From: Eledone cirrhosa
Taxonomy: Eukaryota
Direction of reading: 5' to 3'
DNA: 64,000 nucleotides
Assembly (NCBI GenBank): GCA_964016885.1
Contig: OZ024743.1
Coordinates: forward strand, 64,728,001 to 64,792,000
Positions 6,871 through 9,449 of the stretch are shown piece by piece (the stretch's first letter is position 1; every line of letters begins with the position of its first letter). The notes under the pieces were generated by a model. The model was not told the DNA's origin and did no database searches. It saw nothing but the letters and a program-made list of their open reading frames with translations. Both the position numbers and the translations under genes were made by a program.

Positions 6871-7693
6871 TGGGCCTTCCAGTTACATTTCACATTTTTA
6901 AGTGAACATTTTAAAAAAATATTTTGAAGTGAACGTGACCCAACGGGTCATGGGTGGTCTAGTTATAAATAACATTTGGCAATTGCAATACTGGATGAAT
7001 TGTTATTCTGACTCTCACTTCTGGCTCTGGGATATTTCTCATCCACACTTTGGTAACTGCTTATGGTGCACCGCTAAGTACTTATAAGACTGATTGAAAT
7101 ACCAGAATGTACACACAGTCATACGTCTAGAATAGCACCCCAACAACGCCTAGCTGCTCGAGTATTCTTTTTACAGGTGACATATTTTGCCTGGTCACCG
7201 CTTTAAGAATTGTCCGCCAGTCTCGTTGGATATATTGTTTCGTCCCACTGAAATGTTATCTTTTAACTTGTGAAATGGAAATTTAATACTAACGTAAATA
7301 TAGTTTGTTATTTATACTGTATATTTGCTTATTTTGTTGAATGTCATATTTATATTCGCTTCATAACTCTTTTTTGTTACCGTTTTGCCCAAAGTCAACC
7401 CCCATCGAGCAAACTCATACAGTTTTATGTATAATGAACCTTGGACAACATTATCCAATGTACCCTTTATAAAGAAAGCAGCTTGTAATTTAAGAAGAGC
7501 TTGGCTACTATTTCTAGTAAGTCAACCGGGCACTACCATGCTATTAGCTGTCTCAATCGTAAACATCGTTTATTTCCGTATTACCACGACTTCTGACAGC
7601 TAATACCATGAACTATATTTTCATAGTCATGGTTATCAATGTAGAAAACAAGTCATTTTCACCAACAGTGGAGTTAACTTAAATGAAAATATA

Positions 7694-7712
7694 GGTGGCC
7701 CTTAAAAGGGCC
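7694..7712 (-). promoter_or_regulatory. Histone-mRNA-type stem-loop motif (second arm)
   Basis: Plus-strand ggtggcccttaaaagggcc is the reverse complement of GGCCCTTTTAAGGGCCACC. Confidence 0.55.
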
Positions 7713-7865
7713 AAATTAAAAAACAAATATATGATTATCAAATTTTTTTCACCAACCCTATACATGAAATTGACAACCATAACTATGAAAATATAAATGA
7801 TTAAATCCAATTTATTTGATAACCATGACTTGTTTTCTAATTAACTTAAATTTGTTTTCTAATTT

Positions 7866-7884
7866 GGCCCTTTTAAGGGCCACC
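7866..7884 (+). promoter_or_regulatory. Histone-mRNA-type 3' stem-loop motif
   Basis: GGCCCT-TTTA-AGGGCC-ACC: 6-bp stem, UUUA loop and ACC, matching the metazoan histone stem-loop consensus. Function unproven. Confidence 0.55.
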
Positions 7885-9449
7885 TATATTTTCATTTAAG
7901 TAACTCCACTTACATGCTTTATTAAAATAACGCGTGGTAATACGGAAATAAACGATGTTTACGATTGAGAAGGTTGACGAAACTTTCACTACTGACAGCT
8001 AATAGCATGGTAGTGCCGTCAACCGATTACATAGTGGCTCCCACGTTGTTTGTTTGTAATTCAAACGTGTTGATAACTTTACATCGATAATTCGGTGGTG
8101 TTCGCATTTCTGACATCACTTTTTACTAGAATTTCACAAATAAAGTAGGGTAACTATTTATTATTACACCCCTATCTGAAACATGTGTCGTGGAGTTCTC
8201 GGATGGGGAACCACAGAAAACGAATAATTTACAAATTTATTGTTCACAATTGTTAAAATCACATTACAAATTGTTCATAATTCTTACAGAATGAATATAT
8301 AAACACATAATATATACAATTAATTATTGCTAGGAACCTTATAAATATAACGCGCAAAAATATATATCAAAGCGTGAGAAAAAACGACCATCAATTCTCC
8401 ACCAAGTGCAACAATCGGTCTCACAGCACATCACAAGGGTCAACGGAAATTTTTGAGACAGGCCAACACGCTAGCACCATTACCACAGGTGATGGCGAGG
8501 CTAAGGTGCTGAAACAGACAGACACGCTCACGCACCTCACCTGACACGTCGGTAAGGCCAGCCGCTAACGATGACAAGTACTTCGGTTCTGAAGGTCATA
8601 TTCGTTCAAAACATTAGAAAATCATAGGATACGATTCACTTTCAAAATTCTAATCAAACCTACAAACCAACCTCTCTTTGGATTGGCAATATCGGTAGAG
8701 AGTCGGACGCCATGCTTTGCAGCATAGAGTTATGGCCCTTCATATTCTGAGTTCAAATCCCGCCGAAGTTAACTTTGCCTTTCATCCTTACGGGGTCGAT
8801 AAAATAAAGTACCAGTAATGGACTGGGTAATTGCTGGCCTTGTGCTTAAAGTAGAAACAATTATTACATTAAAAATTTACCTCTTTTTTTTTTTTTTTTT
8901 TTTTTTACAATTTCATAAACAGTATTGTAATATTTGAAAAGGAATGTAGCATATGTATTCAGTTCTTCAACATCTTGTAATATAGATTTGTGTATTCGTA
9001 ATTACAGCTTGCTATCTTCAACTTCATTATCTCACTCTTTATCATTCTCTGGAAGAAATCTGCTATATTCAGACCTGGAGAGAGATGGGCTCTATCTGAT
9101 TTTAAAATGCCCAAGAAACGCCTTCAGGAGTTAAGGGGGAAAAAACATTACTGCTTGCTCTCTTCCCCTTCAGGCAGCGAATTGGCCAAGTTGTTATAAT
9201 GTTTATTAGAATGCTTTGCAGTGTTTGTCCAGCTCTCTGCTCCTTGAGGTCAAATACTGCTGAGGTCAACGTTGCCTTTCATCCTTTTCAGGTTGATAAA
9301 AGCATGTACCAGTTCAGTTCTGGAGGTGATTCTTCCTGTATCCCTTTCATGACTACATGTCTAATGAATACACTTTATTTTAATTAATCAATAAAGAATT
9401 TTGAATGACTTACTTAAATTATTAATTATTTCATTACTAAAATAGTAAC

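Follow-up and report, generated by a model that had tools for sequence, protein, structure and literature searches.

Merlin elements, captured host fragments and histone mRNA 3' ends

Transposons with terminal inverted repeats (TIRs) that carry fragments of host loci are familiar in plants as Pack-MULEs. For animals, the main text of PMC8277862 describes Pack-TIRs, which are mostly single-copy, contain fragments with a median length of 224 bp and are explained by FoSTeST, a model based on template switching. Merlin elements are characterized by TIRs of 24-462 bp starting with 5'-GG and by target site duplications (TSDs) of 8 or 9 bp (PMC8101967). The word "Merlin" does not occur in the main text of the former study, nor does "histone" in the main text of the latter. 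Two recently active Merlin families have been reported for O. vulgaris in PMC13282606, whose accessible text makes no mention of histones. No report of a transposon with a histone stem-loop was found in the literature searched, a body of papers with few subscription titles and with repeat databases outside it, and scanning metagenomes for the hairpin pattern described below returned 0 matches.

The element analyzed here lies in a stretch of 64,000 nucleotides from Eledone cirrhosa, referred to as the window. It resembles members of the Merlin/IS1595 (IS1016-like) group in its GG-starting TIRs, its 8-bp TSD and the 302-aa PF12762 DDE transposase of its coding relatives, but the copy in the window has no ORF and its family contains host histone H4 DNA in both arms. 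With animal Pack-TIRs, as portrayed in PMC8277862, it shares a host-derived fragment of comparable size within a TIR element: the host sequence lies between the TIRs, its parental locus (L136) can be named and cargo-free relatives exist. Capture of nearby DNA by template switching with subsequent transposition, as in FoSTeST, fits the data. Whereas the animal Pack-TIRs of that study are mostly single-copy, this family comprises hundreds of copies with cargo in both arms that is kept in coding elements under selection. In comparison to the histone mRNA 3' end (RF00032; SLBP/U7), the hairpin presents the canonical stem and loop of a real H4 gene, with host-type downstream bases in the coding copies, but differs in its TTT 5' flank, the lack of an upstream histone ORF and the presence of an upstream poly(A)-like hexamer.

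Structure of the window element and its family

The window element (7529-8017) is a non-autonomous Merlin of 489 bp without an ORF (Table 1). An initial annotation had proposed a Merlin-like element with an exact 8-bp TSD and GG TIRs; its boundaries were confirmed, its TIRs are perfect over 24 bp and the assignment to Merlin is strengthened by the PF12762 transposase of its coding relatives. Beyond the TIRs, the arms contain two further inverted segments, one 38 bp long (100%) and the other 62 bp (92%). Two outward-facing hairpins, GGCCCT-TTTA-AGGGCC-ACC at 7866-7884(+) and 7694-7712(-), consist of a 6-bp stem and a 4-nt U-rich loop, a pattern with two matches in the element versus 0.01 expected from shuffled sequences. 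That each arm carries a histone stem-loop, as initially suggested, is in agreement with the Rfam model RF00032 (Histone3), against which the hairpins score 37 and 34 bits at a gathering cut-off of 34 bits. MIR8562 and other weaker Rfam matches in the element were rejected, as they lie far under their cut-offs and reflect the foldback, which as DNA folds with a z-score of -23.6.

Table 1. Features of the Merlin element in the window
Feature	Position	Strand	Remarks
Left TSD (gtcaaccg)	7521..7528	.	exact 8 bp
Left TIR, 24 bp	7529..7552	+	GG start; perfect match to right TIR
Left subterminal inverted repeat, 38 bp	7551..7588	+	100% complementary to 7933-7970
Left H4-derived block, 46 bp	7667..7712	-	97.8% to L136; stem-loop 7697-7712, ACC and downstream bases
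Transposon-native block	7785..7865	+	counterpart of the transposase 3' UTR segment that precedes the hairpin
Right H4-derived block	7866..7923	+	stem-loop 7866-7881, ACC 7882-7884, downstream bases to 7915
Right subterminal inverted repeat	7933..7970	-	pairs with 7551-7588
Right TIR, 24 bp	7994..8017	-	perfect match to left TIR
Right TSD (gtcaaccg)	8018..8025	.	exact 8 bp

The left H4-derived block ends early, at about +30, while the right block is 96% identical to L136 over 51 columns up to 7915, followed by a 6-bp deletion and 8 more matching bases. The transposon-native block contains a poly(A)-signal-like ATTAAA at 7800-7805, where coding copies have AATAAA, and its final three bases are TTT in place of the host ACC flank. 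No histone-like ORF was recognized by eye among the open frames of at least 170 aa in the window, consistent with the initial remark that none is nearby. Positions 1-1737 and later long frames (e.g. 9441, 22677, 41367, 42496) resemble what are presumably retrotransposon reverse-transcriptase/endonuclease fragments.

The family is dispersed, with at least 223 matches (40 of 796 candidates scored) and 109 exact copies of the TIR 24-mer. Among 22 copies with both ends, 12 are flanked by an exact 8-bp TSD and 15 by one with at most one mismatch. A repeat of ~170 bp, which we take to be SINE-like, interrupts the subterminal arm of some copies (L180:1745-1915, L052:2100-2290) and also occurs separately at window positions 8690-8860.

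Transposase-coding relatives

A search with PF12762 yielded 150 scored matches, and 30 loci were taken for inspection. This TIR type and an intact hairpin were combined at only two of these loci (L049 and L055), L052 having a downstream fragment only, which ruled out the idea that every Merlin in this genome bears the hairpin. Subfamily A, found by a search with that protein, encodes a 302-aa Merlin transposase (PF12762 at 68.8 bits) with its nearest named relatives in Octopus bimaculoides and O. sinensis (73-85% identity), in keeping with an octopod host. The expectation that in autonomous relatives a DDE ORF stops upstream of the stem-loop was borne out: the hairpin lies in sense orientation 3' of the transposase stop, usually at about +140, in 28 of the 30 closest coding copies. 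Many coding copies additionally contain the hairpin block in antisense orientation ~250 bp upstream of the ORF.

The window element is linked to these coding copies by L180, in which the same TIR type and an 8-bp TSD accompany a decayed transposase. Since the window element aligns mainly to the L180 arm upstream of the ORF, and this arm is an inverted duplicate of the 3' block, the window element can be regarded as an internal-deletion derivative. Its descent from autonomous elements was thus correctly anticipated. The further proposal that it represents two copies of an autonomous 3' end stands with respect to the coding-relative origin, but missed that the coding elements already had the hairpin in both arms.

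A tree was built from 37 transposase genes (matches of at least 600 bp reaching the 3' end, with shorter and duplicate matches excluded). With midpoint rooting only, all hairpin-bearing transposases fall into one clade of 32 rows (support 100/100), 28 of which have a sense hairpin within 800 nt; of the remaining four, two are truncated at the locus edge, one has an interrupted arm and one an inverted arm. No hairpin is present in the five rows that fall outside this clade. They include L089, a complete 1.9-kb sister element with TIRs and an 8-bp TSD but no H4 DNA, and L177, L273 and L176 are likewise cargo-free relatives. Because the hairpin-bearing transposases form one clade and the outside rows lack the hairpin, the capture was likely a single derived event. 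After the capture, the transposase evolved under purifying selection (pN/pS 0.32 for subfamily A versus L180), while individual copies decay neutrally (pN/pS 1.16).

Several coding copies (L185, L186, L187; L181-L184 and L188-L193 with L246-L255) are organized either as TSD-flanked palindromes (head-to-head, 2.8-3.3 kb) or as very large elements that carry a ~900-bp tandem repeat; of the latter, L189 spans 7.5 kb with a 9-bp TSD and others are homologous over more than 10 kb. A near-perfect 146-bp palindrome is located upstream of the transposase (L182:2949-3094 and equivalents), and its central loop occurs in both orientations (flip/flop). At G000:C18:4.8-12.7 Mb (L097, L103-L120), a dense array of subfamily C includes several copies with an identical TSD, suggesting that a single insertion was multiplied by segmental amplification and not by independent jumps.

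Origin of the hairpin in a histone H4 gene

The search with RF00032 returned, besides the transposon copies, histone H4 genes with the same downstream bases. Sequence comparison indicates that the hairpin DNA almost certainly derives from one of these host loci, the H4 gene L136 (G000:C7:67.458 Mb) in an H3-H4-H2A cluster, which is the best-matching donor. Different subfamilies preserve different parts of it. The MITE L124 contains L136 sequence from the last nine H4 codons and the stop through the 3' UTR and the hairpin into the flank (-26 to +238; 13 mismatches in 280 columns), the H4 segment of subfamily C begins at +30, and subfamilies A and B retain a block of ~63 bp (~+37 to +100). In subfamily D, a segment of L136 from +65 to +636 without the hairpin is fused to a truncated transposase. 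Combined, the subfamilies cover L136 from -26 to +636. Divergence from the donor by substitution amounts to 4-8% in the flank versus 1 of 63 sites in the core block. The initial annotation overlooked this origin in a host H4 gene.

The direction of transfer, from host to transposon, follows from H4 paralogues with unrelated flanks, as the hairpin is found at the normal distance from the stop, 31-43 nt, in 11 of 12 such genes. The 16-mer is admittedly little more than a simple palindrome and histone clusters often contain Merlin insertions, so that a chance or convergent hairpin, or transfer in reverse from transposon to histone gene, might be considered. Both are exceedingly improbable given that the homology spans H4 codons and ~660 bp of a single locus, that the hairpin and its downstream bases are common to paralogous H4 genes, that no TIR of the family occurs in the 9.9 kb around the donor and that L124 holds H4 coding sequence within its TIRs. 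The H4 DNA was likely captured once by an ancestral element and then spread to hundreds of sites; the genome contains 547 exact copies of the hairpin 29-mer, a few of them in host genes. Secondary cargo junctions show overlaps of 1-2 bp (judged by eye), and the ends of the original capture have been eroded by later deletions.

The idea that whole H4 genes ride in Merlins was rejected, since ordinary histone clusters surround those H4 genes that were examined; the Merlin adjoining L098 is a separate insertion behind H3. Among the intact H4 genes L133-L144, 11 of 12 start with MTGRG, the exception being L141, which starts with MSGRG and has a longer 3' UTR.

Passenger or working signal

These observations are best explained by a multicopy, Pack-TIR-like capture of an H4 3' end that probably persists as a passenger rather than as a working signal. 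In this scenario, an element near a histone cluster would have captured the H4 3' end by template switching, during gap repair or by fork switching, and a foldback rearrangement would have copied the block to the second arm. The captured DNA was trimmed to the ~63-bp block present in both arms, and the window copy would have been mobilized in trans by its coding relatives through cut-and-paste transposition. For the transposase mRNA, the 3' end would be formed at a conventional poly(A) site shortly before the hairpin, specified by AATAAA. This hexamer is located at +74 and followed by GU-rich sequence, the hairpin starts 66 nt further on at +140, and this arrangement is intact in 14 of 16 copies; ATTAAA occupies the hexamer site in 38 of 41 window-type copies. 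We infer use of this poly(A) site from a hexamer that stands in AT-rich DNA. Within individual copies, hairpins decay like their neighbors (4/256 versus 86/7725 in the CDS, i.e. 1.6% versus 1.1%; in subfamily B, 19/608 versus 66/3261 upstream), and purifying selection on them was not seen. In a transcript spanning the entire window element, the arms are predicted to pair with each other and the hairpin is lost (pair probability 0.0).

The host histone genes provide a reference for the features that a functional signal might be expected to present. Among the 52 host stem-loops found, A occupies position -3 in 51 and T occupies -3 or -2 in none, while TTT directly precedes the stem in 120 of 123 copies of subfamilies A and B. 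PMC10388802 assigns two 5' adenines to the minimal site for wild-type SLBP affinity. The A/B lineage thus lacks the A-containing 5' flank, in line with the early caveat about a flank that is not A-rich, whereas subfamily C has retained ACC in 38 of 40 copies. A second caveat, the missing purine-rich U7-binding element, carries no weight in either direction, because the host histone genes do not show an evident one either; nearly all have (A/T)GT at about +17/18, and the element retains the host-type AGT at +18. A U7 snRNA was not matched at the Rfam cut-off (best 29.7 bits versus 34), and this candidate was discarded for want of evident complementarity to the host downstream motif. Since U7 was not found by Rfam, it may be divergent in this lineage. 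The three bases after the stem in host histone genes are often not ACC. Two extra H2A-type stem-loop regions ~180 bp apart (L238; G000:C14:40859851 and 40860034) have no histone ORF directly upstream and represent a 3' end that was tandemly duplicated in place.

The initial annotation envisaged that the transposase mRNA ends at the stem-loop and is thereby tied to S phase. In an elaborated form, the captured block would be co-opted so that SLBP/U7 cleave this mRNA just past the hairpin, with expression that peaks during S phase or draws on maternally stored RNA and thereby favors copy gain. In favor of this model, the sense hairpin follows the stop in nearly all close coding copies, and the coding lineage was trimmed to just the stem and the host-conserved downstream bases, +37 to +100. 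The sole change of the core from the donor, loop base 4 to A, occurs in 10 of the 52 host genes. The genome contains an SLBP gene (G000:C13:30.099 Mb), folding predictions for the sense 3' UTR retain the hairpin (pair probability 0.85-1.0), and both the purifying selection on the transposase after capture and the ACC flank of subfamily C speak against a mere passenger, a verdict that is also tempered by the midpoint root of the tree. In five divergent coding copies, whose third codon positions differ by 5-10%, the core block is free of substitutions at all 45-63 sites compared per copy, and versus L180 there are 0 changes in 63 sites where 6.0 are expected at the third-position rate (P about 0.003, calculated by hand). 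This conservation is, however, not specific to the hairpin, because the adjoining transposon-native 80 bp are equally conserved (0-2 of 57-80 sites) and evolve slowly even in comparison to L089: at ~0.4 of the third-position rate against this pre-capture sister (6/76 versus 19%), P rises to about 0.08 (again calculated by hand). The same conservation could result if subfamilies exchanged arms. The loss of the 5' adenines, the AATAAA upstream of the hairpin, the antisense duplicate of the block in the other arm and the existence of hairpin-free sisters leave the S-phase claim unsupported, and co-option is accordingly judged unlikely. The same doubtful standing applies to its more specific version, in which a Merlin inserting preferentially in histone clusters took up an H4 3'-processing cassette and trimmed it to a working core for S-phase-coupled or maternal transposase expression.

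At the level of DNA, the block could be a subterminal palindrome bound by the transposase, a cruciform that pairs the ends, or a break-prone hairpin that sets rearrangement junctions. Its presence in each arm, about equally far from the respective end, and the large foldbacks made by this family agree with such a role, and several junctions coincide with the hairpin or fall within it (its first G being the A/B 5' junction, with half-hairpins downstream), although this clustering was judged by eye. L089 and subfamily D, however, have intact ends and TSDs, so that elements without a hairpin have transposed too and the hairpin is not required for transposition, which makes a DNA-level role very unlikely.

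Even as a passenger, the captured block provides an unusually complete record of capture in an animal, as one genome holds the donor gene together with a sister element free of cargo, intermediates in which trimming is partial and descendants by the hundreds, and it illustrates that cargo can survive in a transposase-coding lineage. The transposon copies of the H4 hairpin exceed the host stem-loops found about tenfold and will mislead Rfam-based histone annotation. With their flank intact, copies of subfamily C could act as SLBP decoys if transcribed. Should the signal be used after all, the SLBP/U7 pathway would have been hijacked by an mRNA that does not encode a histone, and cut-and-paste transposition would have a direct means of being timed to replication.

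Merlins in histone clusters

The proximity between element and donor that gap-filling and FoSTeST models need has a plausible source in the enrichment of Merlins in histone clusters, which would offer a route to capture. In 258 kb around histone genes, 6 exact hairpin 29-mers of the transposon type were found versus 0.047 expected, belonging to 5 elements in 3 cluster regions. An unrelated Merlin family of matching genome-wide count (546) served as a control and gave 1 exact match versus 0.047 expected, and 3 elements when up to 3 mismatches were allowed. As this control family also exceeds expectation, Merlins generally seem to be enriched in histone clusters. An insertion preference for these clusters is possible, the comparison being with a genome-wide expectation and not with gene-dense DNA. 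Merlins of several unrelated families are concentrated within a few kb of histone genes; the Merlin-bearing cluster loci are L234 (C2:142.16 Mb), L228 and L122 (C2:321.54-321.57 Mb), L127 and L233 (C7:93.72-93.73 Mb), L242, L227 and L230.
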